Position numbers and translations under genes: made by a program. Under the pieces are notes generated by a model, which saw only the letters and a program-made list of their open reading frames with translations, did no database searches and was not told the origin of the DNA. A stretch of DNA of 63,451 nucleotides from Lentisphaerota bacterium (GTDB lineage: Bacteria; Verrucomicrobiota; Kiritimatiellia; CAIQIC01; Lenti-01). Positions 5,478-58,500 of the stretch are shown here, piece after piece (position 1 is the first letter of the stretch; every line of letters starts with the position of its first letter). The stretch spans positions 1 to 63,451 of the forward strand of contig JAAZFE010000124.1 in the NCBI GenBank assembly GCA_012511885.1, given 5' to 3'.

Positions 5478-5507
5478 AGTATTACGATTGTGCACAATCG
5501 TAATACT
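5478..5507. repeat. 30-bp perfect palindrome AGTATTACGATTGTGCACAATCGTAATACT (possible bidirectional terminator or operator)
   Basis: Read directly. It lies in the convergent gap between the protease gene and the MscS gene, 24 nt past the MscS stop. Confidence 0.9.
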
Positions 5508-5530
5508 CCCCCCCCGCCCTCTCTCCCGGC

Positions 5531-6595: not shown

Positions 6596-6653
6596 CTCGT
6601 TTGCTCCCGGATTGTTTCACACCGCATGTCGGCAGTCCTGCCCGGAGATCGCA

Positions 6654-8581: not shown

Positions 8582-8591
8582 GGAGCAGCAA

Positions 8592-9605: not shown

Positions 9606-9809
9606 AGGCAATTCCTGCGTAACCTACCCCCTATCCGCCCCTTTGTAAAGCACCAGCAACCCCCATTTCAGCGCATGGCAGAACTCATTTGCTTCCGATT
9701 CACATCCCATCCCTACAACATTCGCGACCCATGCCTCCATGCAACCCAATCTTGCCGGTTGATCCTATGGCCAGAGTTAGTAGATAGTAGGACTAAACAA
9801 AGCCAGCCC

Positions 9810-16040: not shown

Positions 16041-16098
16041 ATAAAACAAACGGCGATGGTTACATTCCTGCTGCTGACAACACTCAACCGACCCAACA

Positions 16099-20843: not shown

Positions 20844-20844
20844 G

Positions 20845-41851: not shown

Positions 41852-43164
41852 GCTTGGGTCGCCGGTCGTTTGCGCTTGGATCGCGGCGGACGGGCTCCGA
41901 GCCAGATGCCGATCCATGTGGCAGTAAGCAAAGTCAGCAAAGGAATCCGCAGAGGAAAATCAACCAAGCTGTGCAGTGCAAAAGCGACGATGGCCAAGCC
42001 AAAGGCGTGCCGCTCGAAATCGCCATAGGCCGGGATCTCGCCCTCTTCAATGGAGGTTTTCCGGCGGGCAGAAAAAACCATGAAAGCCAACACCAAGAGG
42101 ATCGCCAAGCCCGCCCATCCATATTCCACCAGAAATTGGACCGGCTCGTTATGAGCATGCAAAATGGTGTGCCGGGCATATTCGGCAGACTGGTAATAGG
42201 GGAACACAACGGGAAAGGCGCCCGGGCCTATGCCCCAGATCGGCCGTGCCCGCCAGGCCTCCAAGGCATGTTTGAGAATGCCCGAACGGAAGGCCCATTC
42301 CCGCACGATGACTTCGAGTTCTCGCCATTCCAGCCTAAACGCACGCACAGCAAACCCCAGAGACACCATAACCAGCAGCGTTCCTACGATTTTAAAGGCG
42401 GTCGAGGCCGGAACCGTTGCAAAGGGATAATTGGCTGTCGTCCGCCAACGCACCAAGAAAAGCGCGGCAATCGAGAATGTCATAATGGCCATCCCGGCAC
42501 GGGACTGACACATCACCATGCTGATGGCAATCAAGACCCCAACCAAGTAGAACAATCCAGCCGGACTGGACGGAAAGCCAACCTGGACCGCCCGGAACCG
42601 CGCGCGACAAGCTGTGAATAGCGCAATCGGCAGAAGAAGATTGGCAAAAACAGCGTAATGGTTTTCATTGACGAAAATTCCGGTAAACTCACGGAAGCGC
42701 GGCGCGCTGGGTTCCAACCGCTGGGCAATAACCACCAGCGCCATGACACCGGCCGCCACCGCCAGAACGCCACCCAGCCAGCCGACCTGCCGGCGCGGCA
42801 AAGCAAAGCCGGCAGCCACTGCGGCGCAAATGGCCACACCCAAACGAACTACGATCCAAGTGCCCGTGGGATAGGCTGACGCCGGCCAGTGCAGCCAATG
42901 CTCGCGAGGCAGCAAACCGAGCCCGGGAGTCCATTCATGGGAAGCATTCCAGGCGTAGAAACTCATGAAAACCAGCCAGCCCAAAGCTGCCAGCCAAACC
43001 CGCAATGGTGGCAAGCGGAATGGCAGGCAAGCCAATAAGATCAGCACACCCAATCCGGGCAACAAGACCATATTCCACGGCTCGGGCAATTGAGCAGGCC
43101 ATCCGGCCGCAACCAACAGCAACACGAGCAAGGCTAATAAAATAGAGGCGCGCAGGGTGTTCAT
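41848..43164 (-). CDS. O-antigen ligase/Wzy_C-family membrane protein
   Basis: CQSRAGMAIMTF and HAHNEPVQFLVEYGWAGL (typical of the family). Polytopic. Confidence 0.7.
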   Translation of the reverse strand: MNTLRASILLALLVLLLVAAGWPAQLPEPWNMVLLPGLGVLILLACLPFRLPPLRVWLAALGWLVFMSFYAWNASHEWTPGLGLLPREHWLHWPASAYPTGTWIVVRLGVAICAAVAAGFALPRRQVGWLGGVLAVAAGVMALVVIAQRLEPSAPRFREFTGIFVNENHYAVFANLLLPIALFTACRARFRAVQVGFPSSPAGLFYLVGVLIAISMVMCQSRAGMAIMTFSIAALFLVRWRTTANYPFATVPASTAFKIVGTLLVMVSLGFAVRAFRLEWRELEVIVREWAFRSGILKHALEAWRARPIWGIGPGAFPVVFPYYQSAEYARHTILHAHNEPVQFLVEYGWAGLAILLVLAFMVFSARRKTSIEEGEIPAYGDFERHAFGLAIVAFALHSLVDFPLRIPLLTLLTATWIGIWLGARPPRSKRKRPATQA

Positions 43165-45314
43165 GCCTCCTCCGGGACGGACATGACCGTTGGCCTGGCC
43201 TGATAGGCCTGGTAACCATAGCCGCCATAACGTCGATAATAATAATAGTTGGCAAAAGAGCTCAAGTTGACCCCATTGAGCACAATGCCGAGACAAGGCG
43301 TGCCGCTATCGCGCAACTTGACCATGGCGTGGCTTGCTCCCAGGCTGTGGGTGACCCCGTAGCGCACAACAAAGAGGACCCCGTCCACGTCCGGCAGCAA
43401 AACCAGGCTGTCGCTGACCCCAAGAATGGGCGGCGCGTCCACAATAACATGTTTGTAGATTTCTTTGGCCCCATTAAAAATATCCGCCAAAATTTTCCGT
43501 CCGAGCAATTCCGATGGGTGGGAAGGCAGGCGGCCCGCTGGCAGCGCATCAAGATGGGGAGTGGCGGTTGCCTGCACCGTATCACGCCAGTACATATGTC
43601 CTTTGAGCGCCTCAGCCAAACCGGGAGCCTGTGAAGGTATTCCAAATATCTTGGACAGGGATGGGCGGCGCAGGTCTCCACCGATCAGCAAGGTCCGGCG
43701 GCCATCGCGGGCCAGACTAATCGCCAGATTGCTGGCAATCAGAGATTTGCCTTCGCTGGGCCCGGCGCTGGTCACCATCACAACAGGCGCCTGCAAGATT
43801 TCACCTTTCAGCAACAGGCTGGCCCGCAACGTGCGGAAGGCCTCGGCGATCTCTCCAGACGACTTGAGCTCGGCAACTTGTCCGCGTTCACTATCGGTCT
43901 TGTCGAGGATCAACGGCACGGTCGCCAGAACCGGCAGCCCCAAAATGCGCTCGATTTCTTCACTGCGGCGGAAACGGTGGTCGGCATAATAAAAGAGAAA
44001 GATGGCGCCCAGGCCCAAAATGCCTCCGAATAGCGCGCCCCTGGCCAAAGCCTGTCCCATGCGCGGACGAAAGGGAATTTTGGCCGGTCGCGCCTCTTCG
44101 ACCAAACGGATGATGTCCGTAGGCAACGATTCCGAGATACTGGCCTCCTTCATTCGCGCCAAAACCGCGCGGTGAATTTCCTGATCGGTATCGATATTAC
44201 GCTTCAGTTCATTATAGCGAACCAGTTTGCGATCCAGCTCAAAGGCTTCTTGTTCCTGTTCGGCCAGCGCCTCTTGCAGGTGGCGCTCATGTTCCACAAG
44301 CACTTTATATTGCCGTTCAAGCGCATAGACCGCATTCGAGCAGGCCTGCTCGAGCTGATTCGCCAGTTTTTGCTCGGATTCAAGCGCCTGCTGAAGATCC
44401 GGATGCTGTTCACGATAACGCTGGCGCAGGTTCGCGATTTCACGGTTTTTCTCCTGAAGGCGCTGACGAGCTTGTTCCACCTCTCCCACACTCAACAAAG
44501 AAGCAATTTGAACCGCCGGCACACCGCTCTGCAGTTGCTGCTGAACATTTTTCCAGTTGGTTTCCGCCCGGATGCGTTCGGTCTGGGCAACCGTCAGTGC
44601 GGAATTCAGCGCCTTGAGCTTTTCGATCACAATATTCTGGTCATCTTCGAGCGATACCGATCCCGTCTGCTCGCGATATTCCTGGAGTTCGTGGAACCCT
44701 TTTTCAAGTTTTTGGCGATACTCCTCCGAGCGTTCATGCAACCAATCAATGGCCTGCATGGAGGCGCCCATGCGATTATCGAGGTCCTGCTGAATATAGG
44801 CTCCCGCCAACGCATTGGCCAAATCGCTGGCGATTTGGGGGTCGGAATGCTCGACCGTGATATTGATCATGCGGCTTTTTTCGATGGCGGTGATCGTGAC
44901 CCAGCCGCGAATACGATCCATCTTGGCTTCCACGCTGAGCCCGGGAAGAAAGCTGTCGCGATCGGCCAGACCGCTTTGCCGAAGGGCCTCGGCCAACATG
45001 CTGCGACTGTGCAACGCGTTGAGGTGCGTGTTAAAATACTCCAAATTCCGAATGTTGTACGCCATGAGATCCTGATAATTCAGGATTTTGGGGATCTGCG
45101 CTTCCACCATCAGCGTGGCCGTACTTCGGTAATAGGGAATTTGCCGTCGGGCCTGAAAGAAAAACAGCAGGAACACAATCACCGCCACGAACAGCCCGAG
45201 CCAAAACCGTTCGATCAAAATGGCCACACCTTCGCGCCAATCGAAGCGCCGCGTGGAGTCCAGATCGGCCTCGGCGCCTCCGGCAATATAGGGATTGGGT
45301 TTCATCGGGGGCAT
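43161..45314 (-). CDS. wzc: Polysaccharide co-polymerase / tyrosine autokinase (PCP-2a)
   Basis: Wzz-like N-terminus, long coiled-coil periplasmic region, Walker A TSAGPSEGKS, VIVDAPPILGVSD, and C-terminal Tyr cluster NYYYYRRYGGYGYQAY. Confidence 0.9.
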   Translation of the reverse strand: MPPMKPNPYIAGGAEADLDSTRRFDWREGVAILIERFWLGLFVAVIVFLLFFFQARRQIPYYRSTATLMVEAQIPKILNYQDLMAYNIRNLEYFNTHLNALHSRSMLAEALRQSGLADRDSFLPGLSVEAKMDRIRGWVTITAIEKSRMINITVEHSDPQIASDLANALAGAYIQQDLDNRMGASMQAIDWLHERSEEYRQKLEKGFHELQEYREQTGSVSLEDDQNIVIEKLKALNSALTVAQTERIRAETNWKNVQQQLQSGVPAVQIASLLSVGEVEQARQRLQEKNREIANLRQRYREQHPDLQQALESEQKLANQLEQACSNAVYALERQYKVLVEHERHLQEALAEQEQEAFELDRKLVRYNELKRNIDTDQEIHRAVLARMKEASISESLPTDIIRLVEEARPAKIPFRPRMGQALARGALFGGILGLGAIFLFYYADHRFRRSEEIERILGLPVLATVPLILDKTDSERGQVAELKSSGEIAEAFRTLRASLLLKGEILQAPVVMVTSAGPSEGKSLIASNLAISLARDGRRTLLIGGDLRRPSLSKIFGIPSQAPGLAEALKGHMYWRDTVQATATPHLDALPAGRLPSHPSELLGRKILADIFNGAKEIYKHVIVDAPPILGVSDSLVLLPDVDGVLFVVRYGVTHSLGASHAMVKLRDSGTPCLGIVLNGVNLSSFANYYYYRRYGGYGYQAYQARPTVMSVPEEA

Positions 45315-45326
45315 GTGCGCTGGCGG

Positions 45327-46403
45327 CTAAAAGAAAACTTGGGGAACCATAATGACATCGTTGGGCTCAAGAGGAAGGTCCGGCTGCTTGCGACGCTTGC
45401 TGAGCAGATCTGACACGCGGATTTTCATGGTGGTCTGGCCGCCATCCGGCAGACGGCGCACCAGGCTGATGCGATCCGGGCTGGCCAGATCAGTAAAGCC
45501 CCCCGCTCCGGCAATCGCTTGGAGCAAGGTCATGGTTTCGCCCACTTCCAGAGGATATACCCCCGGCTTTTTGACTTCGCCCAGCACCACGATTTGCGAA
45601 CTTTGCGTCGAGGCCAGCCGGAAGATCACCCGCGGATTCACCAGATAATCTTTGTTGAGCCGGCGTGTAAAATCCCGCTCAGCCGCTTCCAGGGTTTTGC
45701 CCGCCATGGGAACCGCCCCCAGCAAGGGGTGCCGGATCTCCCCGTTCAACCCAAGTTTGAATAGCCCGGACAGGTCCGGTTCACGATAAATCTGGATGTC
45801 TATTTCATCGTTGGGTTGCAAAATATGGATGGTGGTCTCGGCAGAAACAGGACTGTCCGGCGCATCTTTCTTGGCGGCTTTGGCGGTCGCCGCGGCCTTG
45901 GCTTCAGCGGCGGCCTGCCGTGCTTCCTGACGACGGGTCGCCTCCTCTTGCTTGGCAGCGGCAGCGGCTTCCTTCTTGGCCAACGCCGCTTGCTTGGCCT
46001 CTTCGCGCTGGCGCGCCTTTTCATCGGCCGCAGCTTGCTTTGCGGCCGCCGCCTCCTGTTTAGCCTCAAGAGCCGCTGCGCGTTGCTCCGCTTTGGTCAG
46101 GCGGGCCACGGTGACGGCCGCCTTGCCGGTCAGCGCCGATTCACTCTTGGCGGAGAGTGCTTTCTTTGGAGAGGGCGGCTTGGGGTCTGTTTTCTTTTGA
46201 ACCGATTTTTTTGCGGTAGTTTTCCGGGCCGCCGGCTCTTGAGATTTGGCCGGTTTCGCTGTTTTTACCTCGGTAGAACCCGCAGCCTGGGGATCAAGAA
46301 TACCGCTGGGCGGCAACGGCAACGGCCGGGGAGCAGTGCAGCCCGAAAAACCAGATATTACCGCCAGCAGCAGTAAACCATATCCGCCACGACGCCATAA
46401 CAT
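45327..46403 (-). CDS. wza: Outer-membrane polysaccharide export lipoprotein (Poly_export + SLBB) with a long K/A/E/Q-rich linker
   Basis: Lipobox LLLLAVISGFSGC and a low-complexity linker of about 150 aa. Then ILQPNDEIDIQIY...GEIRHPLLGAVPMAGKT...DYLVNPRV and VVLGEVKKPGVYPL. Confidence 0.85.
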   Translation of the reverse strand: MLWRRGGYGLLLLAVISGFSGCTAPRPLPLPPSGILDPQAAGSTEVKTAKPAKSQEPAARKTTAKKSVQKKTDPKPPSPKKALSAKSESALTGKAAVTVARLTKAEQRAAALEAKQEAAAAKQAAADEKARQREEAKQAALAKKEAAAAAKQEEATRRQEARQAAAEAKAAATAKAAKKDAPDSPVSAETTIHILQPNDEIDIQIYREPDLSGLFKLGLNGEIRHPLLGAVPMAGKTLEAAERDFTRRLNKDYLVNPRVIFRLASTQSSQIVVLGEVKKPGVYPLEVGETMTLLQAIAGAGGFTDLASPDRISLVRRLPDGGQTTMKIRVSDLLSKRRKQPDLPLEPNDVIMVPQVFF

Positions 46404-46483
46404 GGACCAACTCTCCACCACCAAACCTTTATATCATATTTATGGAGGATGGAAACAAGCAAATCGCTCCGCCGTCAAACGGA

Positions 46484-47773
46484 TCAATAGTTCCAACTGG
46501 CCCGCAACACCCAGCGGCCGTACTCATAAGAGGTTCTTTCCCGGGTATCTTCGCGGGCTTCACGACTGCCCCTCCGTTCCTGATAGGAATAGGCCAGACC
46601 CAACGAGAAATTCTGTTTGGTCCACCAGTCCAGACTCACGTTGAATCCCCAATAATTGTCGGTGCGTCCGTCGTACACACGGTCATCTTCCAGCACATGC
46701 CGCCCATGATACTCCACCCGGCCGAAATTGACAGAGGCCCCCCCGCGCAACCGCTCGATAAACAAACGCCGGGAAACACTGCCCGTAAGGCCTTGGTCAA
46801 CCGCATCCAGCCCGGTTTGATCCACGGCCGGACGGATATCCGCATACAACTCCAACCCGAAGGTGCTCAAACCCATGGGCGAACTCTCCGCACTGACCGA
46901 GGCAACCCAATTTTCATAATCCGCGCGCCCCGCGTCATCATACGTGCGCCACATGTAGCCGACGCGCCCCGACGAAGAAAACTTGGGCGATTGTTTGCCC
47001 CGCACCCCGATGGAAAGATCATAGTAATCGGCCGCGCTGACGTTGTCCCGCTGGCGCCGGGGCTCATCCCGCCCTACTCCACCCTGGAAAAAACCTTCGC
47101 TTTTAGCCGTCACCCGGTGATACAGACGGCCAGCGCCATAGTAACGGTCATAGGTCACATAGCGGTCGTCATCAAAGTCATGCCGTTCCACGCGCCCGAC
47201 GGCGCCGAGGCTGGATTTGCCGGAAACGCGATGTTCCAGGTTCACATCCGCAAAATAGTCCTGCCGCGCAATGCGCGCCCCCACGAGCAAATCCACCTGC
47301 TCGACATAACGCAGTCCAAGCTGGCTGTTGATCTGTGTTTTGGGCCCGCGATATACCATCCCCAGCCGCAACAGATGGCTGGGCTTCTCATCCACCACAT
47401 CGTGCTCGCTGTGATAGATGGGCACGTTGATGCCGTAATCCGCGAAGAGATGATTGTTGGCCGGGCGGCCCCAGATGGCCAGCATCCCCGCCGCCAAATC
47501 CACCGTGGTGAGCGGCGTTTTCTTATCGGGATCGAGGAAGATATTATCCTCCTGCACCACCGCCAGCGTCACCCGCGGCAAAACGGCGCCGGTGGTCTTG
47601 GCGGGGATATAGAACGGATCAAACACAGCCCCGCCCTGATCCAGATAATAGGCCGCCTCGACGCCACGGGTATAAAACCCCGCGGAGAAGGAATCACTTG
47701 CCGCCCAGCTCCCGGCGGGAACCGCCAGGAACAGGATGAAGAACGCGCCAAGTTCTGAAAGTCGGCGCCTCAC
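46484..47773 (-). CDS. Putative outer-membrane beta-barrel protein of the export locus
   Basis: Signal peptide MRRRLSELGAFFILFLAVPAGSWA, alternating beta-strand-like pattern with frequent Y/G/R/D, and a C-terminus LRASWNY ending in an aromatic residue. GTGA overlap with the upstream gene. Confidence 0.55.
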   Translation of the reverse strand: MRRRLSELGAFFILFLAVPAGSWAASDSFSAGFYTRGVEAAYYLDQGGAVFDPFYIPAKTTGAVLPRVTLAVVQEDNIFLDPDKKTPLTTVDLAAGMLAIWGRPANNHLFADYGINVPIYHSEHDVVDEKPSHLLRLGMVYRGPKTQINSQLGLRYVEQVDLLVGARIARQDYFADVNLEHRVSGKSSLGAVGRVERHDFDDDRYVTYDRYYGAGRLYHRVTAKSEGFFQGGVGRDEPRRQRDNVSAADYYDLSIGVRGKQSPKFSSSGRVGYMWRTYDDAGRADYENWVASVSAESSPMGLSTFGLELYADIRPAVDQTGLDAVDQGLTGSVSRRLFIERLRGGASVNFGRVEYHGRHVLEDDRVYDGRTDNYWGFNVSLDWWTKQNFSLGLAYSYQERRGSREAREDTRERTSYEYGRWVLRASWNY

Positions 47774-49665
47774 CGATTCCCCTCCAGGAATCGGAAGCCT
47801 TGAATCAGCTCTACCTCCCGCTCATTGTAAGGCTCGCCATCGGCCTTGAGCACATTCTGTTGCCATAGATCGGGCTCTTGGTCCGACCGGTATTGGGGCT
47901 GTTGAATTTCCAACTGGGTTTTGCCAGCCACCAAACCGCGGTTGAACCACCCCACGCGATACACCGAAAAAAGCGGCAGCATAGTGTCAAAATCATTGCC
48001 GGTCTGGCGCATCAGCCAATCCGAACAGATGATGGGCCGCTGATGGCGTTGCAGAAGTTTCAGCCGGGCCTCCACGCTCTCGACATGGTCGAAGCCTTGG
48101 AAGGCAATCAAATCGGACCGCTCCAGTTTGCGGGCGGTCATCGCACCGCCGAAATCGTGCCAGGCCGATACCGCCAGCGGCTGGGACGCCTCAATTGACC
48201 GCGCCCAATTGAACGTTTGATCCATCAGGGGCAGACTTTCTTCGCCCAGTCCGCTGTTGCCCGCGGTGTTGTACAGGTCCCAATAGAGCACCCGCCCGTC
48301 CCGCCGGAACTTGCGCATGACCTCTTTGACATATTTTTCCAGCTCAGGCCATTGTTCGCGATCGGCAACCGCCGAAGGCGCCGGGCTGGGCACCCACCGG
48401 CTGTTGTGCTCTCCGGGCACCGGCTCGGGCTGCGGCCCCACCACGGGGGCCTGTCCGGCCATGTCCAAATCGTCGAACAGCACGGGCACCACCCGCTGGC
48501 CATGCTTGTTCGCCAGGGAAAGCAGCTTGTCCACCCGATCCAGAAAACCATCCGAATCGTTTTGCCAGACCTCAAACGACAACTGCACGCGGATCGCGGT
48601 ATAGCCCGCCTTGCCCGCCCAACCGAGTTCCTCATCCATAGTGTCGGCATCGAATGTGTCCTTGCACCACATTTCAATCGCATTGACCGCGGTGCGCGGC
48701 ACGTAGTTGACGCCTTTGATCGGGCCCAGCTGGTTGTACCAGTTCCAGAGGCGTTCCTGCCCCCAGCGCCCCCCGGGCTGGCCTTCGGCCGGGCGCGGCA
48801 AAGCCGCGGGCAGTTCAACCGACACCGTGGGGCGGACAATCGGACTGGCATCGGTCACCAGTGCGCCGCCATCCATCTGATAAAACGGCGTGGCCAATCC
48901 CAGGTAGCGTCCAAGGCCGGCCCGGTCCAAACCCTGTATATGGTCCAGGAAAGGTTCCAAATCAGCGAAATACACATTGCACAACTCGAACGTGTGCAAC
49001 TCGGGATGAATGGCCACCTGCTCGGTTTGCAATTCAGCACGTTGCTGCTCCGCCGAGAAAAACAGCGACGCCGCGCCCCCGGCTTCAATTTCGGCCCGCT
49101 CGCCGTTCCGGGAAACCACCGACAACTCAAAGTCGTCGCAATAGACGTCCCAGTTCTCCTTGCCTCGCTGGGCCACCACAAACGCCGCCCCCTGCGCTTC
49201 AACGGTGCCGGCCGCGGTTTCCACCTGAATATCCAGCATGGGCGACGGCGCCCCCGCCTGCACGCGCACCCGCCCCCGATGCAATTGGATGTGAATGCGC
49301 CGAATCAGATCTTCGTTGCTCTTGGGCAGGCCATCGGCCGTATGCCGCAGTTGCCTGAAGGTCAACTCTGTTTGCGGCGCCACGCAAATGATGGCGCCGG
49401 GCGAACACACCATGCAAAGCTGGCCGTCGCGTCCGGTCATCACCCGGGAATGTTCGCCAACCGCCGCGCCTTCGAACAGGTCGCGCACGGTTGTGGCCCC
49501 TTCGTGCACCGGCCCCGTAAAGACACGCACCGTGGCTTTGCCGGTCATGGAGGCCACCACCGCCTCTCCCGTCGGCAGGGCCCCGGCTGCGGGACCGGCC
49601 CAGGCCAACATCATCGCCACCGCACTCCAACGCGCCAGCCATAAAACAGGATTTGTTTTGTTCAT
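47770..49665 (-). CDS. Secreted FecR-like domain fused to a TIM-barrel glycoside-hydrolase-like domain (clan GH-A-like)
   Basis: The ATG at 49665 gives signal peptide MNKTNPVLWLARWSAVAMMLAWAGPAAGA. FecR-like GKATVRVF...MTGRDGQLCMVCSPGAIICVAPQTELTF. C-terminal GVNYVPRTAVNAIEMW...GYTAIRVQLSF...VLYWDLYN. Confidence 0.6.
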   Translation of the reverse strand: MNKTNPVLWLARWSAVAMMLAWAGPAAGALPTGEAVVASMTGKATVRVFTGPVHEGATTVRDLFEGAAVGEHSRVMTGRDGQLCMVCSPGAIICVAPQTELTFRQLRHTADGLPKSNEDLIRRIHIQLHRGRVRVQAGAPSPMLDIQVETAAGTVEAQGAAFVVAQRGKENWDVYCDDFELSVVSRNGERAEIEAGGAASLFFSAEQQRAELQTEQVAIHPELHTFELCNVYFADLEPFLDHIQGLDRAGLGRYLGLATPFYQMDGGALVTDASPIVRPTVSVELPAALPRPAEGQPGGRWGQERLWNWYNQLGPIKGVNYVPRTAVNAIEMWCKDTFDADTMDEELGWAGKAGYTAIRVQLSFEVWQNDSDGFLDRVDKLLSLANKHGQRVVPVLFDDLDMAGQAPVVGPQPEPVPGEHNSRWVPSPAPSAVADREQWPELEKYVKEVMRKFRRDGRVLYWDLYNTAGNSGLGEESLPLMDQTFNWARSIEASQPLAVSAWHDFGGAMTARKLERSDLIAFQGFDHVESVEARLKLLQRHQRPIICSDWLMRQTGNDFDTMLPLFSVYRVGWFNRGLVAGKTQLEIQQPQYRSDQEPDLWQQNVLKADGEPYNEREVELIQGFRFLEGNR

Positions 49666-49692
49666 GGGTTGTACTACCTTCTTCTTTTGGAA

Positions 49693-50157
49693 ATGGCCTG
49701 TCTCATGCTGACCCCTCCCGTTATCGTCACGTTGCTTCTCGAACAACACACGCCAGTCACCTTTCGCGCCAGCGGCCCCAGCATGAATCCCACCCTGCGC
49801 GATGGCGATGTGGTTCAAGTTGTGCCCCCGCCATCCGGGCCCCTCAAGCTGGGCAGCCTCGTGCTCTATCGTCTGTACGGCCGCCTGGCCCTGCATCGGG
49901 TCGTGCGCCGGGATTGCCGAAGCCAACGTTGGTTCATTGTCGGCGACGCGGCCGTCGCAGGCGGCGACTGGATAGCAACCGCCGACATCCTCGGTCTGGC
50001 CACACGCGCTCACCGTCAAGACCGGGTCATTTTGCTGGCCACCCGTCGCGTGCGCTATGCGGGTCGGCTCCGCTTCGCCCTGCGCCCATTGCGGCGCGCG
50101 CTGAATCTGGTGCGACAAGCGCTTCATGCCAGCACCTCTTCCCGCAAGAAAGGGTGA
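49693..50157 (+). CDS. Small S26-family (signal-peptidase-like) serine peptidase, apparently Ser/His (ER/archaeal/SipW) type
   Basis: N-terminal hydrophobic segment, GPSMNPTLRDGDVV (Ser box) and LALHRVV (His where bacterial SPase I has Lys). ATG at 49693; the ORF track starts at TTG 49669. Confidence 0.6.
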   Translation: MACLMLTPPVIVTLLLEQHTPVTFRASGPSMNPTLRDGDVVQVVPPPSGPLKLGSLVLYRLYGRLALHRVVRRDCRSQRWFIVGDAAVAGGDWIATADILGLATRAHRQDRVILLATRRVRYAGRLRFALRPLRRALNLVRQALHASTSSRKKG

Positions 50158-51029
50158 CCGCCCTCCAATAAAGCGACCACATCCGGGGTCCGCCTGAAAA
50201 ACAGCTTGTGGCACGGAACATCCTGCGCGAGCTGATTCAGGCCATCGAGAATCCCCTGACTCCAGGAATCTTCGAACCAGGGCACCGCCGCCACATCCAG
50301 CAAAGCCATACGAATCTGGCTCTCGGGCATCGGCTCCAAACGATCCGTCAATGCCTGGTGCAAAAAGTGAATGTTCCCCAGCGGCACCTCGTCGGGTTCA
50401 GCGTAGCGTTCGGAACCATGCCACGGCGTACCGGCCACGCGCCACTGCCCCTCGCGACGAAATACCACCACGCGGTCATCGTTCAAAATCCGCCACCCAT
50501 TCGCCTCGAACAGCCGGGCGATCGTGGATTTGCCTGCCCCGCTGCGCCCCGTAAACACCTGCCCCACTCCATCGCGCACGGCCACCGACGCATGCAGCAG
50601 CACCCCCCCAACCTTGGCCAGCAATCCCCAGGCCAGAATCTGGTCCAGCGGATACCGCAGGGGCTTGATGCAATCTCCACTCGCCCAGGCGGCGGGATGC
50701 AACCACAACTCCGCTGCGGTAAAGTCGCGCGTGACCCGACAAGACAACCGTTGTTCCTCGGGCGCTTGCAGCCCCACGTGGATGATCCAATCCGAGGCAT
50801 CCTCCCAAATCGCCCAGTGGTTCGGCGCCAACCATAGTGGCGCGCGCGTGGGGCACGGCTCGAAACCGCACACCACCTCCACGGGCAGACGCGCCAGCGC
50901 ATTCCCGGTATCCGTCGAGTGCGCAAAGAACCCGGCATAGGCCGGATCGTCATAGCACAACGCGCCCGGCGCGGTGCTGCGCAAATCAAAGCACAGCGGA
51001 CCGATTTCCAGATGTCCGGTTCTGCTCAC
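50124..51029 (-). CDS. HPr-kinase C-terminal-domain-like P-loop protein (HprK-related kinase)
   Basis: LLHASVAVRDGVGQVFTGRSGAGKSTIARL...NDDRVVV...GTPWHG. GTG start in a GTGA overlap with the peptide ORF stop. Confidence 0.7.
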   Translation of the reverse strand: MSRTGHLEIGPLCFDLRSTAPGALCYDDPAYAGFFAHSTDTGNALARLPVEVVCGFEPCPTRAPLWLAPNHWAIWEDASDWIIHVGLQAPEEQRLSCRVTRDFTAAELWLHPAAWASGDCIKPLRYPLDQILAWGLLAKVGGVLLHASVAVRDGVGQVFTGRSGAGKSTIARLFEANGWRILNDDRVVVFRREGQWRVAGTPWHGSERYAEPDEVPLGNIHFLHQALTDRLEPMPESQIRMALLDVAAVPWFEDSWSQGILDGLNQLAQDVPCHKLFFRRTPDVVALLEGGHPFLREEVLA

Positions 51030-51211
51030 GAGCCCCCCATAAAGATTCGAAACGGAGGCCCCACGCAGGTCGTATCACTGTCCATCTTGCACGAAATGGA
51101 CAGTGTTTCCGTCAAAGCCAAATCCACCCGTTTGATGTCGGGCTTTTCATAGGGCCGTCGGATCACCAACGGCGGGTGTTCCCGCGCCGGGAATGGTTTA
51201 TTCGCTTTCAT
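51026..51211 (-). CDS. Candidate RiPP precursor peptide (61 aa): MKANKPFPAREHPPLVIRRPYEKPDIKRVDLALTETLSISCKMDSDTTCVGPPFRIFMGGS
   Basis: ATGA overlap with the rSAM stop and GTGA overlap with the kinase start. GGAGAG lies 6 nt upstream of the ATG. Leader-like YxxPxI...T motif, 2 Cys in the C-terminal half, C-terminal Ser. Confidence 0.55.
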   Translation of the reverse strand: MKANKPFPAREHPPLVIRRPYEKPDIKRVDLALTETLSISCKMDSDTTCVGPPFRIFMGGS

Positions 51212-52269
51212 ACATTGCTCTCCATTGCCGCGCGATAGCGAAGCTGCGCCGTGCGCCGCATATAATCCGATTCTTCTTCCTCCCGGCCGGTTTCCATCCG
51301 GTTGACCGCAGGACAATGCGCGCAGGCGCCGCGCTCGTCGCCGGTCAGGCAGGTGTCCGTCCGCGTCCAGCGCCGCTCTTGAATGGCGCCGAGTTCCTGC
51401 TCCCAGATTTCGGAGAAAGAACGCCCCGCCGACGCCCGGGCATAGGGTTCCGCCAGGATGCAGGGAGAAAGGTTTCCAAAGGGGTCGGCGTGAAAAGCCG
51501 TCCGCCCCGCGGAGCAGGGGTATAGGCGCTCGTCCGGCGGAACCGCCAGAACTGCTTCAATGCGCTCGCGCCATTGCTTCTTTTGATACGGCGCAGCCAA
51601 GTCCGCCAGCACCGCTTCCTCCGGCGAAATCCGCAGATCCAGCGGCGCCCGCGATCCCCCCTCCAGACAGGGAAACAGCGCCGAATCGTGCCGGAAGGGA
51701 ACTCCGCACCCGGCCGCCTGGCGCTCAAGCTCTTCGAGCTCGGCCAAGTTGGACTTCATCAGCACGGTTTTCAGCTCCACGCGCACGCCCGCCGCCAGCA
51801 GGCGGCGAATCCCCTCCCAGGCGCGACGATGCGATCCGGGATGGCCGGTAATGCCGTCATGCGTGGCGGCCGTCGCGCCATACAGGCTGATTTCCACCTT
51901 GCGCGGCGGATACTCCCGGAACAGCGCCGTGATCTGCTCCGTCACCAGCGTGCCGTTGGTGAACACCGTCACCACCAGGCCCAGCTCGCGGGCATGGCGG
52001 TAAATCTCCGCAAAGTCCGGCCGTAGCAGCGGCTCGCCGCCCGTCAGGGTCAGATAGAGGCATCCGGCTTCGGCCCACTCGGTAAGCGCCTGTTTGACGG
52101 CACCAGTATCCAGCTCGCTCGGCTGCCGGCGGTGCTGTTCGACCTGATCGCCCAGATAGCAGTGAATGCAGTTCAAATTGCAGCGCCGGGTCAGTTCGAG
52201 CGTGGCGGCAATGGGAATGCGCGTTTCCGTGGCACGGGCGCGGAAGGCCTGGTTCCACTCGCGGGTCAT
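51208..52269 (-). CDS. Radical SAM enzyme with a C-terminal SPASM/twitch-like Cys-rich domain (peptide maturase type)
   Basis: ELTRRCNLNCIHCY (CX3CX2C). C-terminal CSAGRTAFHADPFGNLSPC and CLTGDERGACAHC. ATG at 52269. Confidence 0.85.
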   Translation of the reverse strand: MTREWNQAFRARATETRIPIAATLELTRRCNLNCIHCYLGDQVEQHRRQPSELDTGAVKQALTEWAEAGCLYLTLTGGEPLLRPDFAEIYRHARELGLVVTVFTNGTLVTEQITALFREYPPRKVEISLYGATAATHDGITGHPGSHRRAWEGIRRLLAAGVRVELKTVLMKSNLAELEELERQAAGCGVPFRHDSALFPCLEGGSRAPLDLRISPEEAVLADLAAPYQKKQWRERIEAVLAVPPDERLYPCSAGRTAFHADPFGNLSPCILAEPYARASAGRSFSEIWEQELGAIQERRWTRTDTCLTGDERGACAHCPAVNRMETGREEEESDYMRRTAQLRYRAAMESNV

Positions 52270-52286
52270 CGTCTGGAGATCGCAAC

Positions 52287-52568
52287 TCACGTCATCACCT
52301 CCAACATGCCCCGCCGCACAAGCTCTTCGGCAAACTCCACGCAATCGTTGCGGGCCTCCGCCAGCTCCACGTCAAATTCACTTGAGAGCGCCCCGGCCGT
52401 GACCTCGACAGATACCCCCCGGGCCAGACGCGACCAGATGAACTCGCCCGTTTCATTTAGCGGAAACACACAGCTTTCGCGGGCCAGATCGCCGGAAACA
52501 GGAACCAGCAGGCGGTCCGCGCCAATTCGGCGCAAAACAATTTTCCCTTTTGGACGGTATGTCGCCAC
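52287..52568 (-). CDS. PqqD-family protein (RiPP recognition element-like)
   Basis: IVLRRIGADRLLVPVSG...VFPLNETGEFIWSRL...LSSEFDVELAEARNDCVEFAEELVRRGML. The GTG at 52568 lies 17 nt after the giant gene stop; an ATG at 52637 would overlap that gene by 52 nt. Confidence 0.7.
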   Translation of the reverse strand: MATYRPKGKIVLRRIGADRLLVPVSGDLARESCVFPLNETGEFIWSRLARGVSVEVTAGALSSEFDVELAEARNDCVEFAEELVRRGMLEVMT

Positions 52569-52585: not shown

Positions 52586-55500
52586 TTAATGTTGAATGGC
52601 CTCGAGGCCGACAAACACACGTCCGTTGGCCGAGCACGGCACACGCGCCCGAATGGTCTCCATCACCTCATCGGGGTCCACCTCCACGTCAAGGATGACG
52701 ATCTCTTCATCGGCAGGCCTCCACGTCACCAGGTCATCCGATATCAACAAGCGGTAGTCCACATCGAGGCTTCGGGCGCGCTGACGCCACTGCACGACAA
52801 GCTCCTCATCATCGCAGGTTGGACATGTACTGCCGCCCTGGGGCTTGACGTCCACTCCCCCCTCCACCGGCTCGACCATGCCATCGTTGTCAAACGCGTA
52901 GACATAGAATCGCTCAGGCGTAGCCGCACTGACTTCCGGATCGGCCAGCTCATCAGGGCTGAACCGTTCCCAGCGCCACTCGGCAAAGTTCTCGGCGATG
53001 CCGCCATCGCCCCGGTTGTTGGCAATGCGCAGCGCCGGATCGCCCAGCAGGTTGTACATGGCATAGGTGGTGAAACTGAACTGGTTGTGCTCCACGCTGC
53101 GCAACGCCTCCAGAACGGCCGGCCCCAGCGTGCCAACCTTCTTCTGCAGCACGACATCGTAGAACGCCAGTCCCAGTTCCTGCGCCAGCTGGTTGTCGGA
53201 GAGACCGGAAGGCCCCCACGCTGCCACCGCGCCGCTGCCGGGTGCGCGCAACAGCGCCTCGCCAAGGCTTTCAATGTTCGGCAAAGGATCCTCGTGATGC
53301 CCGACCAGGCAGCTCAACGCCACCACCAGCATCGGGTACTCGGCATTTTGCAATCCGGGAGCATCCGACGACGCGAGCACATGCTCATTCCAAGCCTGCG
53401 CCGAGCCATGGCCGGTATAGTGCACCATGCCAGCGCCAGTCCGGATGGCGCTGGTCAGGGTGGTTTTCGCCGTCTTGGCATTCATCGCCCTCCGGTCAAT
53501 CCGGATCACCTCGCGTTCCGGTCCGGCCAGCCCTTCGAGAGCGTCATTGACGTCCCCAAAATCGCCCGCAAGCGCATCGGCCTTATCCGAAACCAGCACC
53601 CACCGGCCCAGCCAGTCGCTGCCAAAGCTTTGCTCATATACCTTGATTTTGGCAATCATGGCCGCCAGGTCGCCCGCATCGCGCGCGGGCAGTCGGCCAA
53701 CCGACGCATTCGGAAGCCCGTCGCCATGGTAATCCGTCAATAGGTTGTCGCTCGAGAAAAACCCGTTGTCGGTCTGCACCAGCAGCGGCGGGATATGGTT
53801 GCCGCCAAAATTCTGCGTATCCAGGAAATCATAGTGCCCGCTGCCCGCCAGCAACACCATCCAGGGCGCCTGCGCCCAGGTGGCGTTGGCATACGCCAGC
53901 AGCTCGGAAATGGCCTCCGGCGTGCGCAGGCCACCTGCCATCCAGTCGCACAGGTCCTCGAAGGTCGCCACCCCCACGCGCAGTCCCTGGCTGGCGCGAT
54001 AGTCGGCCAATTCCTGCACCGCCGCCTCCAGTGCGCGCGAAACCACAATCAGATAATCCACGCGGTTGTCGGGGGTCATGAACCACGGATCCTCCGCCAC
54101 CACCTCCAGCGGCAACTGCGGAAGTTCCGCCCATTCCTCCAGAGCATAACGCCGGTCGCTCGACGACGACGCCCAGGCCTTGTTCGGCAGGCCACCATCC
54201 TCGTCCGCAATCCACACGGGCCGGTCATACCGATCCAGCGCCACCACCAGCGGCTGCGTGAAGGCGGGCGCCGCATAGGCGGACATCTTGCCCGGTTCAT
54301 GGAACACCGGATTCCCCTCGGGGGTCAGCTCGCGCGCAAAGGTGGCCTCGATCCAGTTGACCACAAAAAAGCTGTACGAGTGCCCCTCTTGGAGCACACC
54401 CTTCACCTCGAACGTGTTGAGCCCGTTGCTCGCCAGAGTAATCGGCGCCAGCAACTCAACCGTGCACACTTCCTGATCGTCGAAAGTCGCCGATCCGATC
54501 CATTCGCCATTGAAGCGGAACTCGGCCAGGTGGTCCGGCCCGCCTGGCGTGCTCGACCAGCCCTGCAAGCTAACCTTGATCGCCACATCGCTGCCGGCAA
54601 AGCCCCGCAAATCAAGCGGGAACGACTTCACCGAGGCGGCATTCTCCGTAGGAGCGCTGATCACATAATCCCAGTAATAGAAATCGTCCGGCAGGTTGTT
54701 CACTGTGTTGAGATAATAGTTGTCCTCCTCGAAGCGCACCCGCGCAGGCAACACATCGTCGCCGTGCGTCGCGCCCGGCTCGCGCCGCGTCATGCTCTGC
54801 CCGTCGCCAACGGAAATCATTACGACATTGCCGCGCGCGTACCAGTTGTCGGTGGCCCGACCGTGGAAAATCAGGCGACCGTTGACCGCGTCATGGATGG
54901 ATGGCACCACGTCGCCCTCCACCGACAAGGCCAGGCGTTGCGCGTGAGCCAGCGCCTCCACGGCTTCCAGTTCCTGCCCCATGCCCTCGGCAAGTTCCGC
55001 CAGACTCAGGGCATAGAGCCCCGCCTTGGGATAGGACGCCTTCAAGACGCTCGAAGGCCCTGCCAACCCGACAGGCGCGGCCGGTTTGGCCAGAACGGCG
55101 CGCTTCCGCGACGAATCGGCCGCCGCCGCGCGAGCCGCCAAAGCCGCGGGCGGTGGCGCGCCAAACGTGAGCTCGTACGTGCCGAGATCATTGACCATGC
55201 CTGACATCTCGACCTCCTCGAGACGGTACCAGCCGGTGCCGCCTGCTTCCGCTTGCGGGTCCTCCCACTCGTACAGGCCACCGGCAGAACTCAGCACCGA
55301 CGTCACCAGCCGCGGCGTCACCAGCTCCCCGGCATCGTCCTCGCCGGCAAGGCGATAAATCCGGAAGCCGGCCGTATGCCACTCCGAATCCGTTTGCCAT
55401 GCGACAACCCCGGCGTCCCCGCGCGCCTCGCCCCACACATCCACCAGGGTCACCCGCGTCGGTTTCAATGGTATCAGCCCCAAATCAATCGTCAGGTTGG

Positions 55501-58500
55501 TTTCCCAGGCCCGCAAGCTAAACGGGTCGGTCACGGCCAGGCGTTCGGTGCTCCTGGTTTCTTGGAGCTCGGGATTGCTGTCCAGCGCGGGATCGTCGCC
55601 CTGATATCGCGGCGACACCCCCACCCAGGTGGAACGCCCGGTGAGGTCAAAATGAATCGTGTAAACGCCGGGCACGACATCCGTGAACAGATAGTTCCCG
55701 CCGGCATCGGTCAGCATCTCGTCCACCACCTCGTTCTTCGCGTTGACCAAATACACCGGCAGCCCCTCAATCCGCAGCTCTTCTTCCGGGTCCTGGATGC
55801 CGTTGCGGTTGGCGTCAAACCACACCAGATCGCCCACCACGGCTCCGCCCTTGGGAATCACCACCACGCTGCTCGTGTCGTTGTTGGGGTTGGGGTCGAA
55901 CAAGTCCCGGCTGGTGATCGTCGCGGTGTTGGTAATGCGCAATCCGGCATATTCGCGGGCGGTCACGCTGATATACAGCGTGGTCGAAGCCCCCACCCCC
56001 AGCGTGCCAATATCCCAAATGCCGGTCGCCCGGGTATAGTTGCCGTTCGAGTGGCTGTTGTATTGCAGACCGCCCGAGGGCAGCACGTCGGTGATCTTGA
56101 CGCCTGTGGCCACATTCGGCCCATTGTTTGTAGCGGTCAAGATGTACTCAATCATCTCCGCCTGGTCGGGATCCTCCTTGGTCACGGTTTTGAGCACGCC
56201 CACATCCGCCGACACCACGCAATTGGTCGCCACGGCGGACAGCGCCGGATGCATGGCGCTATAGACACTGGCACGGTTCGTCAGGGCGTTGCTCACCGGC
56301 GGCGAATCCGCCGTAACCTCGAACGTGAAGGTGGCCGTTTCGCCCACGCCCAACGTGCCCCCGCTCCACAATGCGGGCGGAGCGCCCACCGTGCCCTCGG
56401 GCGCGGTAGCATACCACACCACCACGCGGCCCGCCGCACCGGCGCCGCCCGCATAGGTGGTGCTGGAAAACGTGGATGTCTTGACAGCGCCGCCCCCGCC
56501 CCCACCGGGTACGCTCCCGGGGCTGCCGCCACCCTGCGAGGTGGCGCCGCCCCCGCCATTCCCGCCGCCCGGAGGCGCGGCCGCGCCCGCCGAACCCGAC
56601 GCGTTGTTGCCCGCCGCGCCCGGTCCCGCCGAAGATCCGCCGCCGCCGCCATAGCTCGTGCCCGAGCCGTTAGCCCCGCTGCCGCCGCCGTAACGCACAT
56701 CGCCCACGCCAGCGTTCGCCGCCCCGCCCGACGCCCCGGCATCGCTGTTGTTGGAGGTTCCGTTCCCGCCCTTTGCCAAGACCAGATCGGTGGTTCCCAG
56801 CCTAAACCGGGAATCCCCTCCGGCGGCATTGGCGCCGCCGCCCCCGCCCACCTGCACCGAATAGCTGGCGCCGGGACTTACGCTGAAATCACGCCGGCTG
56901 TAGGCGCCGCCGCCGCCCCCCCCGCCCGCGCCCGTATTGAATATTCCTGAGCGCGAAGCTCCACCGCCACCACCGCCCCAGGCCTCCACCCTCACCTGTC
57001 CGACTCCCGCCGGAACGGTGAACGTGCCGTTCGCGTTGAAGGTGACCGACGTCGTGAACTCCGGCGAATAAAACTGAACCGCCACACTGCCGGGCACATA
57101 CGTCACCCCGGCGGGAAGCATGTCCTCGACCATAATGCCGGCCTGCTCCACATTGCCGGTGTTCGCCACCACAACCGTATAGCTGATGGTGTCGCCCGGC
57201 GACAAACAGGCACCCGTCTGGCTCGAATTCTTCGTGATCGTCAGGCCGCGAACCTCCGGAACGAAGCCCGCGTCCCAGCTCAGGTCATTCACCCCCACCG
57301 GCAGATAAAACACCTCCGTGCGGCCCGTCAGCGGCGAGGCATCGCTGTCCAGCTCGCTGTCCGCCCCCTGGTTCTGCAAGGTATGGGCATAGCCTTCCGG
57401 CGCCTCGAACTGCAGATAGTAATACCCCGCCGCCAGATTGGTGAAACTATAGTACCCGTTGTCGGTAACCGTCGTCGCCACCTCGTTGTCGTCGGCGTCG
57501 TAAAGCGTCACCACCACCGGCGGGAGTCTGGACTGGAATAAATCATCCTGAATCCCGTTGCCATTCACATCGTGCCAAATATAATTGCCCAGCGACGCCG
57601 GCGGCTGGTAGAGCCCCGCATCGCGCGTGGTGTCATTCGTGCCGCCGCTCAGCGTGAACACCGCCGTGCGCCCGGTCGCCGGCGAAATATCGCTATCCAG
57701 CGCGGAATCGCCGCCCTGTCCCTGCGGCGACACGGCATACGCCGACGGCACCTCGAACTCCAGGAAATACGATCCCGAAGGCAGGTTGGTGAAAGCATAA
57801 GCGCCCTGCGCGTCGCTGGTCGTCGTGTCCAGCAGCACGCCCGATGCGGCATACAGCAGCACCTCCACGCCGCCCAGACCCGGTTCGCCCTCCTCCTGAA
57901 TGCCATCGCCGTTCAGGTCGAACCACACCCGGTCCCCCACCGAGTTGGCGACGGAATAGTTGGTGGCCGTAGCCTCGAGAGGTGGTCGCTGATCCATCGT
58001 CAGCGTGGCGGTATTGACAAATTGCGTGCTCACCAGCGGATACCCCAGGGTCGCCGCCAGCCCCACCGTGATCGTCTCGCCGGGGTGGATGGTGATGTCC
58101 GTCAGCAGATTCGGCGGATCCTCAACCGTCAGCAATTCCTTGTCCGTATAGCGGATCATCACCATGCCCGCCGCGCCCGCGCCGCCGGTGCGTGTGCCGC
58201 TCGTGCGATAAGCGCCGCCGCCCCCGCCGCCCGGCGTACTCCCCGCCGTGCCGTTGCCTTGCGAACCGCTGCGCCCGTCTCCGCCATTGCCGCCGCCGGC
58301 GGGCGCAATCGCCCCGGCAGAACCGCTGGCGTTGTTGCCCGCCACCTGGGTGCCGGCCGAGGACCCCCCGCCGCCGCCGTAAGAACGGTCAACCCCGTTG
58401 GCGCCATTGCCGCCGTCATAACCAACATCGCCAATACCGCCGGAAGCCCGCCCGCCCGCCGCGCCATTCCGCGCGTTTTGCGCCGCGCCGCTTCCCCCGC

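Follow-up and report, generated by a model that had tools for sequence, protein, structure and literature searches.

The stretch analysed here (the window) was the 63,451-nt contig JAAZFE010000124.1 from a Lentisphaerota bacterium (assembly GCA_012511885.1), and the element under study was a gene cassette on its minus strand, centered on a 61-codon open reading frame (ORF) at 51026..51211 that encodes the putative precursor of a peptide made by the ribosome and modified after translation (RiPP). In the direction of transcription, this cassette comprised a gene for a PqqD-type recognition protein, a gene for a radical S-adenosylmethionine (SAM) enzyme, the peptide gene, and a gene for an HprK-like kinase, and it was met on the plus strand by a convergent signal-peptidase-like gene (see below for each). 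An earlier note, made from the DNA letters, had read the peptide as a lasso-type precursor whose two Cys residues might alternatively serve a radical-SAM enzyme.

The minus-strand translation of 51026..51211 was MKANKPFPAREHPPLVIRRPYEKPDIKRVDLALTETLSISCKMDSDTTCVGPPFRIFMGGS followed by the stop codon, a product of 61 aa identical to that given in the earlier note. It contained YxxPxI, Thr34, Thr36, Cys41-x7-Cys49, Asp44, Asp46, and a terminal Ser. The ATG start of the ORF shared 4 nt with the stop codon of the upstream radical-SAM gene (ATGA), its TGA stop likewise overlapped by 4 nt (GTGA) with the HprK-like gene downstream, which starts with GTG, and a GGAG motif was located about 8 nt 5′ of the ATG.

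The 61-codon ORF was a real gene, because conserved homologues were found at the same cassette position and the substitutions among them fell mostly at the third codon position. Three grades of relatedness were recognized: (i) identical peptides in 17 contigs, as recovered by direct search; (ii) an 85%-identical relative with the same synteny, in which residues 1–17 had diverged and residues 18–61 carried one difference; and (iii) homologues of 41–57% identity at the equivalent position in ten further loci. A kinase-anchored search (493 kinase homologues), together with genome scans and contig look-ups, recovered ORFs of 55–63 aa whose ends met the kinase start; they came from Verrucomicrobia UBA1418 (L004), an unclassified metagenome-assembled genome (MAG; L005), Nitrospira (L006), and four more contigs of the Planctomycetes–Verrucomicrobia–Chlamydiae (PVC) group; here and below, L0xx labels denote the loci compared with the window, and L020 from Bacillus rhizoplanae was the positive control. 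Over a 25-codon block compared among nine loci, the differences were concentrated at codon position 3 (e.g., 7, 3, and 15 at positions 1, 2, and 3, respectively), the rate of nonsynonymous change (dN) was 0.1–0.35, and that of synonymous change (dS) exceeded 1 or was saturated, a pattern of purifying selection. The earlier note had argued for a real ORF from its tight coupling on both sides, and that argument was borne out; it had also proposed looking for a homologous small ORF at the same position in relatives and for substitutions that respect the reading frame, and both were found. The position of the gene was displaced in the Kiritimatiellia-like locus L026, in which the precursor gene (6264–6446) was relocated from the gap between the radical-SAM and kinase genes to a site upstream of the PqqD gene, with its sequence still conserved. 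A second precursor copy was searched for in the window, and none was found.

The precursor family

The peptide matched no family in Pfam or NCBIfam. A profile built from ten peptides collected 413 clusters at 90% identity, and the matches listed were about 60 aa in length (one was 84 aa), unnamed or annotated as ‘hypothetical’, and without Pfam domains; a profile search of 1.84 billion representatives gave 140 clusters at 50% identity (E ≤1e-3), nearly all of 41–81 aa. Conservation was counted over 120 or 113 close homologues and over 134 representatives at 50% identity, the latter being designated the wider family. The hosts of the cassette homologues belonged to Lentisphaerae, Kiritimatiellia, Verrucomicrobia, Nitrospira, Acidobacteriota, and Proteobacteria. 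Two candidate members were rejected: P0262 (1823 aa), whose repeats of RPYKSPEIEGISLATD included ten matching the leader part of the profile, was judged a chance or low-complexity resemblance, and P0279 was a frameshifted assembly fusion. The contig of a further match, P0301, was too short to reveal its gene neighborhood.

After a variable 17-residue N-terminus, the consensus of the close clade read RRPYEKPEIKRVDLALAETLSxGCKLESDSGCVGPPITAYEGGS. Tyr21 and Pro24 were invariant, position 26 was always Ile, Leu, or Val, and Glu35 was also listed among the family invariants. The Tyr-to-Cys distance was exactly 20 in 129 of the 134 wider-family members; Gly-Cys-Lys was present in 121 of them, one or two more Cys residues were found beyond it, and the segment C-terminal to it was hypervariable across the wider family. 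Cys41 was invariant and Cys49 nearly so, and the Cys pair singled out by the earlier note was thus conserved in both its members. The terminal Ser was shared by 125/134 (with Thr in 7), usually as x-Gly-Ser, and 111 of 120 close homologues ended in GGS, the terminal Ser being the most conserved feature of the core. Other positions were less constant: the Thr36 position was held by Val in 68/134 and by Thr in 59/134 of the wider family, Thr34 was specific to the window, 96 of the 120 close homologues having Ala there, and Ser38 was confined to the close clade, most wider-family members carrying Ala or Gly instead. An acidic residue at the positions expected of a lasso ring acceptor (core positions 7–9) was found in 111 of 113 close homologues vs. 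59 of 134 wider-family members, and some wider-family cores contained no Asp or Glu at all. Of the features that the earlier note proposed to align, YxxPxI, the terminal Ser, and the Cys pair were upheld, and the Thr at position 36 was kept in 59 of the 134 wider-family members.

Beyond these peptides, related two-Cys precursors accompanied loci with a reordered kinase–PqqD–radical-SAM arrangement; those of L011–L013 ended in Ser, and the candidate in L014 ended in Gly-Gly. The distant precursors of a Thiolapillus MAG and two Acidobacteriota MAGs took the form KKPYxxPxI...EPLEAxAxxCS...C..GP..S. A lipobox reading of the L-S-x-G-C segment was rejected, the peptide having no signal-peptide h-region, a spacing off by one, and a highly charged preceding sequence.

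Enzymes of the cassette

The first gene of the cassette (52287..52568, minus strand) encoded a discrete PqqD-type RiPP recognition element (RRE) of 93 aa with a GTG start (Pfam PqqD, E=2e-12). Its best NCBIfam matches were the lasso PqqD chaperones, below cut-off, and its best PDB sequence matches were TfuB1, TbiB1, PbaB1 (9x90), and LppB (9x8z). In LppB, TfuB1, and TbiB1, an Asp hydrogen-bonds the leader Tyr, and a Phe separates two pockets (PMC13381572). Asp75 and Phe79 of the window protein aligned with this Tyr-binding Asp and this pocket Phe (Asp70 and Phe74 in LppB) of all three proteins, and the Trp-specific PbaB1 had Gln at the place of Asp75. The window protein was 28% identical over 57 aa to the LppB-like protein of L020 (E=7e-6).

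The second gene (51208..52290, minus strand; Pfam Radical_SAM, E=2e-24) encoded a predicted peptide maturase of the radical-SAM type whose C-terminal domain was of the auxiliary-cluster kind (twitch or partial SPASM), and the start of the gene was either GTG at 52290, overlapping the PqqD stop, or ATG at 52269. All of its NCBIfam matches were below cut-off: MftC, AhbD, and NirJ were the best, the sactipeptide maturases StsB and AlbA were also listed, and the scores against curated maturases were 67.9 bits vs. a cut-off of 850 for AlbA, 65.4 vs. 340 for PapB, and 63.7 vs. 300 for the SkfB family. The best PDB sequence matches were SkfB, which forms thioethers, and PqqE. CxxxCxxC, C252, C270, and C319 were kept in 13/13 aligned homologues, and C316 in 10/13. 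The auxiliary Cys pattern was thus C252–C270 (Cx13Gx4C) plus C316 and C319, and the Cys set predicted in this way is that of one auxiliary cluster, not of a full seven-Cys SPASM domain.

The gene downstream of the peptide gene (50124..51029, minus strand) encoded a putative HprK-like peptide kinase of 301 aa, belonging to the Pfam ScmC family (PF27840) by precomputed assignment and showing weak matches to ScmC, HprK_rel_A/B, and HPr kinase in NCBIfam/Pfam. Its AlphaFold2 model had a predicted local distance difference test score (pLDDT) of 91, with PEP carboxykinase and HprK/P as the best folds. His146, Lys167 (within GAGKST), Asp184, and Asp185 were invariant in 25 kinase homologues; the corresponding His-Lys-Asp-Asp set is essential in the kinases that tailor lasso peptides, whose target is the conserved Ser at the C-terminus of the precursor (PMC9266682). 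With the LppK-position kinase of L020, the window kinase shared 26% identity over 161 aa (E=2e-16), and only 45 aa aligned with the lasso-type kinase of the same locus. The earlier note had assigned the terminal Ser to an HprK-like kinase of the lasso subclass: the conserved Ser and the adjoining kinase with its His-Lys-Asp-Asp set agreed with the first part of this assignment, and the lasso subclass was not supported.

The fifth gene (49693..50157, plus strand) was convergent with the kinase gene and overlapped its 3′ end. It encoded an archaeal/SipW-type signal-peptidase-I-like protease of 154 aa, the predicted leader peptidase, with the motifs GPSMNPT, LHRV, and GDAA. The top NCBIfam family was TIGR02228 (sigpep_I_arch); the best PDB sequence match was SEC11A, the SM.P (Ser) and HRV (His) motifs being aligned; and the protein was 28% identical over 94 aa to the 156-aa LppS-position protein of L020 (E=3e-7), in an alignment that also matched the motifs of the catalytic Ser, His, and Asp. 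The gene was conserved at 40–96% identity, always on the opposite strand, in L001–L005 and L023–L027. Same-strand homologues accompanied the kinase gene in Nitrospira L006, L007, and L029, and in L011 such a homologue was located immediately upstream of the kinase gene; those of L006 and L029 exceeded the curated cut-off of TIGR02228, with SipW as the second family.

In the window, this peptidase gene was covered by an 814-aa minus-strand ORF (47770–50214), which was rejected as called because its first ~183 codons were antisense to the conserved peptidase gene. The true start of the downstream gene was placed at 49665 (MNKTNPVLW), in agreement with the 611–652-aa proteins called in L024–L027. 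In L001 and L023, gene callers gave a fused product of 781–785 aa, overlooking the peptidase. The lesson for annotation is that a leader peptidase gene was concealed antisense beneath a mis-called long ORF.

The PqqD, radical-SAM, peptide, and kinase genes were found together in L001–L006 and L023–L027, and the radical-SAM, peptide, and kinase genes were seen in the short contig L029; all of these loci also harbored the signal-peptidase-like gene. The short contig L007 showed the kinase gene and the signal-peptidase-like ORF only. The peptide thus combined an exact-spacing recognition motif, a cognate RRE, coupling to two modifying enzymes, and a hypervariable segment, all typical of a RiPP precursor, and it is scarcely credible that it serves instead as a small protein with a structural or regulatory task in the polysaccharide locus where the cassette resides, even though its core was unusually conserved within the PVC clade and an orphan copy was found beside a FecR-like gene in L030 (see below).

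Comparison with known peptide systems and predicted pathway

The peptide resembles a lasso precursor, as the earlier note had seen from its leader motif: Tyr21, Pro24, and the aliphatic position 26 were conserved throughout, and a PqqD recognition protein was present. It would nevertheless not belong to a lasso pathway, because no cyclase or B2 protein was encoded with it, the ring acceptor was conserved only in the close clade, and Val took the place of Thr36 as often as Thr did. The ORF-by-ORF Pfam scan of the window detected neither Asn_synthase nor Transglut_core3, and tblastn with the L020 cyclase and B2 protein gave no match at E<1 in the window, L001–L006, L008, L011–L014, L023–L027, L029, or L030. 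The Bacillota controls were positive: the L020 cyclase matched strongly in L015 and L019–L022, the L020 B2 protein matched only L019 and L020, and the cyclase, paeninodin-type precursor, kinase, B1, and B2 genes of the lasso part of L020 were all detected by Pfam.

For a genuine lasso peptide, the precursor would have to be cut after Leu37, a cyclase from another part of the genome would have to link Ser38 to Asp44 or Asp46, and the radical-SAM enzyme and kinase would act as tailoring enzymes; we consider this very improbable. Such a cut would give Y-17, P-14, I-12, and T-2, which is the classic lasso spacing, followed by Ser, Ala, or Gly at +1 and, in nearly all close homologues, an acidic residue at +7 to +9, and the family matches of the RRE point the same way (see above); but the searches for cyclase and B2 were negative in the peptide and radical-SAM loci where their controls were positive, fewer than half of the wider family had the acidic residue, the Thr position was often Val, and the cassette kept a leader peptidase of a different type. 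The Asp at core position 7 or 9 pointed out by the earlier note was present in this peptide and in its close relatives but not family-wide, and the Thr that would lie two residues before the cut was present in this peptide and replaced by Val in many members of the wider family. A paeninodin-type cut after Thr34-Glu35 was rejected as well, Thr34 being replaced by Ala in most close homologues. The YxxP leader motif is not confined to lasso peptides and also serves the families of the linear polyphosphorylated peptides (LPPs) and of pyrroloquinoline quinone (PQQ) (PMC13381572).

The LPPs were described by Popov et al. (Nat Commun 2026; PMC13381572) as products of lppA-K-B-S-D-N clusters in capsular-polysaccharide loci of Bacillota. 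Their leader consensus is YxxPxVLxHQxIxFET|xxS, where the bar marks the cut, with Y-16, P-13, V-11, E-2, and T-1 and with Ser+3 phosphorylated; LppS cuts after T-1 and requires LppB, the kinase polyphosphorylates, and the conservation of the consensus reaches into the core (PMC13381572). The paper presents the family as restricted to Bacillota and makes no mention of radical-SAM enzymes. With a cut after Thr36, the window peptide would display Y-16, P-13, I-11, E-2, and T-1, i.e., the LPP numbering. The predicted leader would then be residues 1–36 (nt 51104–51211, minus strand), with a spacing equal to that of the LPP leader, and the predicted core would be LSISCKMDSDTTCVGPPFRIFMGGS (nt 51026–51103 including the stop, minus strand). 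The calculated monoisotopic mass was 6855.53 Da for the precursor without modification, and the mass of the predicted core was 2648.21 Da. In L020, the LPP-type precursor (…SYTRPMVLSTQPIRFETAQSWNK…) fitted the published consensus as YTRPMVLSTQPIRFET|AQS and was followed by genes for the kinase, the recognition protein, and the 156-aa protein. The LPP-type unit of L020 abutted a paeninodin-type lasso cluster, the two together occupying 2035–8597 and matching the co-localization reported by Popov et al.

The comparison with the LPPs showed the following common features: a discrete PqqD-type protein that keeps the Tyr-binding Asp, a kinase of the HprK-like type, and a signal-peptidase-I-like protease of the archaeal/SipW type, each homologous to its L020 counterpart; a YxxPx(V/I)...E-T leader with identical Tyr-to-Thr spacing; the lack of a lasso cyclase; a polysaccharide locus; and, at the far end of the supercluster, a nucleotidyltransferase (NTP-transferase), a kind of enzyme also encoded in LPP and pseudomycoidin clusters (PMC13381572, PMC9266682). 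The window differed from the LPPs in several respects: the cassette carried a radical-SAM maturase; the core had Gly-Cys-Lys, more Cys residues, and a terminal Gly-Ser; the HQ, I, and F consensus positions were unmatched; the peptidase gene was convergent; the NTP-transferase gene was distant; an MsbA-like exporter gene was missing from the cassette; and the hosts were outside Bacillota.

The paeninodin-type lasso systems (PadeK, ThcoK, and PsmK; PsmN), examples of which were seen in L016 and L019–L021, shared with the window the (Y/W)xxPx(L/I/V) leader, a discrete B1/PqqD protein, an invariant C-terminal Ser encoded next to an HprK-like kinase with His-Lys-Asp-Asp, a nearby NTP-transferase, and polysaccharide neighborhoods. 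The window cassette differed from them in having no macrolactam cyclase or B2 protein, a leader Tyr instead of Trp, an acidic acceptor that was not family-wide, a kinase aligning over 45 residues only, and a radical-SAM enzyme.

The sequence comparison was also extended to the radical-SAM/SPASM RiPPs (SkfB and AlbA sactipeptides, ranthipeptides, PQQ, and mycofactocin) and to the SynChlorMet (SCM) systems (ScmC/D/E/F; HprK-related kinase A/B). With the former, the window shared an auxiliary-cluster radical-SAM enzyme, a PqqD element, and a short Cys-bearing precursor, but its enzyme missed the curated cut-offs widely, its RRE was discrete and lasso-like, its leader bore the lasso/LPP motif, and a kinase and a signal-peptidase-like protease were fixed partners. 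To our knowledge, no characterized radical-SAM RiPP combines a discrete lasso-like RRE, a kinase, a signal-peptidase-like protease, and a lasso/LPP leader. Literature searches found no radical-SAM RiPP combining an HprK-type kinase with PqqD, those on SynChlorMet/ScmC likewise returned nothing relevant, and a 2025 paper on recognition elements mentioned neither kinases nor signal peptidases. With the SCM systems, the window shared a kinase of Pfam ScmC, whose best NCBIfam match was also ScmC, and weak matches to ScmD and ScmE/F; it differed from them in that these matches were far below cut-off (39.5 bits vs. 125 for ScmC, 19.2 vs. 100 for ScmD, and 74–91 vs. 400 for ScmE/F), in that it had one radical-SAM gene, not two, and in that a precursor family could be identified. 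We know of no identified precursor for the SCM and HprK-related kinase A/B systems.

The peptidase, the kinase, and the recognition protein together point to LPP-type processing with a cut directly after Thr36, and the cassette probably encodes a radical-SAM-containing, LPP-like RiPP pathway outside Bacillota, made up of an RRE, an HprK-type kinase, a signal-peptidase-like leader peptidase, and an added radical-SAM enzyme. In this pathway, the PqqD protein would bind the leader through Tyr21-x-x-Pro24-x-Ile26, as its homology and its retained Tyr-binding Asp and pocket Phe suggest. The bound precursor would be handed to the radical-SAM enzyme, which, as a guess, may install a Cys-based thioether (sactionine or ranthionine) involving Gly-Cys41-Lys42 and Cys49. 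The kinase would phosphorylate, and perhaps polyphosphorylate, Ser61 as in paeninodin-type peptides, a choice consistent with the conservation of this residue; Ser38, near the LPP Ser+3, is an alternative phosphosite, and Ser61 is favored over it because most wider-family members replace Ser38 by Ala or Gly. The signal-peptidase-like protease would cut after Glu35-Thr36, where the spacing is identical to that of the LPP leader, and free a core of 25 residues. An NTP_transf_5 protein encoded at the far end of the polysaccharide genes (see below) may then decorate the phosphate, which is again a guess.

Several points weigh against this pathway. In the wider family, Val occupied the predicted P1 position as often as Thr did, and the phospho-Ser of the LPPs is at +3, whereas the Ser of the window family was at +2 and in the close clade only. 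Conservation extended through Gly-Cys-Lys, so the cut could be later, e.g., after Lys42. With 22.9 bits in NCBIfam and 20.9 bits in Pfam, the window peptidase fell short of both cut-offs, and its gene was on the strand opposite to the operon; the NTP-transferase gene was ~29 kb away from the cassette, and no MsbA-like exporter gene was found in the cassette, the only transporter of this kind in the window being a Wzm/Wzt-type ABC transporter.

The peptide stop codon overlapped the kinase start in all examined PVC loci that had the peptide gene between the radical-SAM and kinase genes (all except L026), the terminal Ser was as conserved as the Cys, and the kinase, RRE, and peptidase were homologous to an experimentally linked trio acting on a peptide with equal leader spacing (PMC13381572). 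These observations make it improbable that the product is a RiPP of the radical-SAM enzyme only (sactipeptide- or ranthipeptide-like), with the HprK-like, signal-peptidase-like, and NTP-transferase proteins serving other substrates of the polysaccharide locus, although the position of the peptide gene directly after the radical-SAM gene, the conserved Cys, the SkfB-like relatives as best solved matches, and the ScmC-like kinases that polysaccharide loci such as L010 encode in the absence of a radical-SAM gene would all suit that explanation.

Polysaccharide-locus context and implications

Immediately upstream of the PqqD gene, the window carried a gene (52586..62722, minus strand) whose product was a giant surface protein of 3378 aa with a Peptidase_C25 domain of the gingipain/PorU family at its end (E=9.5e-65). 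A C25 protein gene was directly upstream of the PqqD gene also in L005, Nitrospira L006, L023, and L025–L027, with one gene between them in L024, and it was absent from the acidobacterial and gammaproteobacterial loci. This neighbor bears on the site of maturation. If everything through Gly-Cys-Lys were leader, a cut after Lys42, e.g., by the co-encoded C25 domain, would release the variable end of the peptide; the conservation up to Gly-Cys-Lys and the hypervariability directly beyond it would fit such a cut, as would the constant place of the C25 peptidase in the PVC loci, L005, and L006, and gingipains cleave after Lys or Arg. We regard this maturation site as unlikely, however, because an invariant Cys beside the cut suggests a modification site rather than a leader, the conservation of the LPP consensus enters the core as well, and the C25 domain resides in a secreted giant protein that the acidobacterial and gammaproteobacterial loci do not have.

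Downstream, the cassette was followed by surface-polysaccharide genes. The FecR-domain/glycosidase-like protein gene (47770–49665, minus strand) was followed by genes for an outer-membrane barrel, a Wza-like exporter, and a Wzz/tyrosine-kinase, these context genes together spanning 43161..49665 (minus strand); beyond 43161, glycosyltransferase and ABC transporter genes extended to ~19.7 kb. This order was repeated in L001 and L023–L027, and the general PVC order was C25 giant protein, cassette, FecR-domain/glycosidase-like protein, outer-membrane barrel, Wza, Wzz/tyrosine kinase, Wzy, and ABC transporter. The last gene of this 43-kb co-oriented polysaccharide supercluster encoded an NTP_transf_5 nucleotidyltransferase (19698..21041, minus strand; PF14907, E=6.5e-31), a possible counterpart of LppN/PsmN. 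An NTP_transf_5 gene directly adjoined an ScmC-like kinase gene in L008 and L010, and membership of the window gene in the peptide pathway is proposed tentatively.

Elsewhere in the window, (i) mevalonate-pathway genes, coding for two GHMP kinases and a protein resembling diphosphomevalonate decarboxylase, and a gene for the alpha subunit of malonate decarboxylase were located at 6654–9611 (minus strand) and 17644–19272 (plus strand) and were unrelated to the peptide, and (ii) a second pair of glycosyltransferase and Wzy_C/O-antigen-ligase-like genes was located at 14886–17397 (minus strand), outside the main polysaccharide supercluster.

In the Bacteroidales MAG locus L010, a PqqD, NTP_transf_5, and ScmC-like kinase cassette (4125–6600) was found between a sugar transferase gene and a Wza-like exporter gene. 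No radical-SAM gene was present in this 12.5-kb locus, and a motif search of it for a precursor was without result; the L010 cassette may be a simpler relative of the peptide system. Polysaccharide genes flanked the distant loci L010 and L012, and cassettes of RRE, kinase, and NTP-transferase recurred in polysaccharide loci of five or more phyla. In the 6.6-kb contig L030, an orphan 58-aa precursor copy (5295–5471) was followed directly by a gene for a homologue of the window FecR-domain/glycosidase-like protein, and the contig carried neither a radical-SAM nor a kinase gene; this arrangement suggests that the peptide may be connected with the FecR-domain protein.

The context of the cassette, similar to the capsule loci that surround LPP and paeninodin genes, suggests a role at the cell surface, and the peptide product probably acts in the surface-polysaccharide/adhesin system that houses the cassette. 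A more specific and rather doubtful proposal is that the modified peptide is a working part of the surface-glycan/adhesin machinery instead of a secreted antibiotic: in one form of this proposal, the phosphate on the terminal Ser would be extended by NTP_transf_5 and the glycosyltransferases, and the phosphopeptide, cross-linked by the radical-SAM enzyme, would prime, anchor, or link the polysaccharide or the C25 giant protein. This proposal was raised because the cassette was fixed between the gene of the C25-bearing giant protein and the Wza/Wzz genes and because such cassettes recur in polysaccharide loci. C25-family enzymes such as PorU can be sortase-like transpeptidases.

A precursor family has now been identified for the widespread, unannotated cassettes of PqqD, radical-SAM, and HprK-like (‘ScmC’) genes. 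If the proposed pathway is right, the logic of the LPPs, first reported in 2026 and until now placed in Bacillota alone, would extend to several Gram-negative phyla and to radical-SAM chemistry, and one lasso-type pair of leader and recognition protein would have been reused by three enzyme machineries. The family would thus offer a system in which to study this reuse and to ask what ties such peptides to capsule and exopolysaccharide loci time and again.

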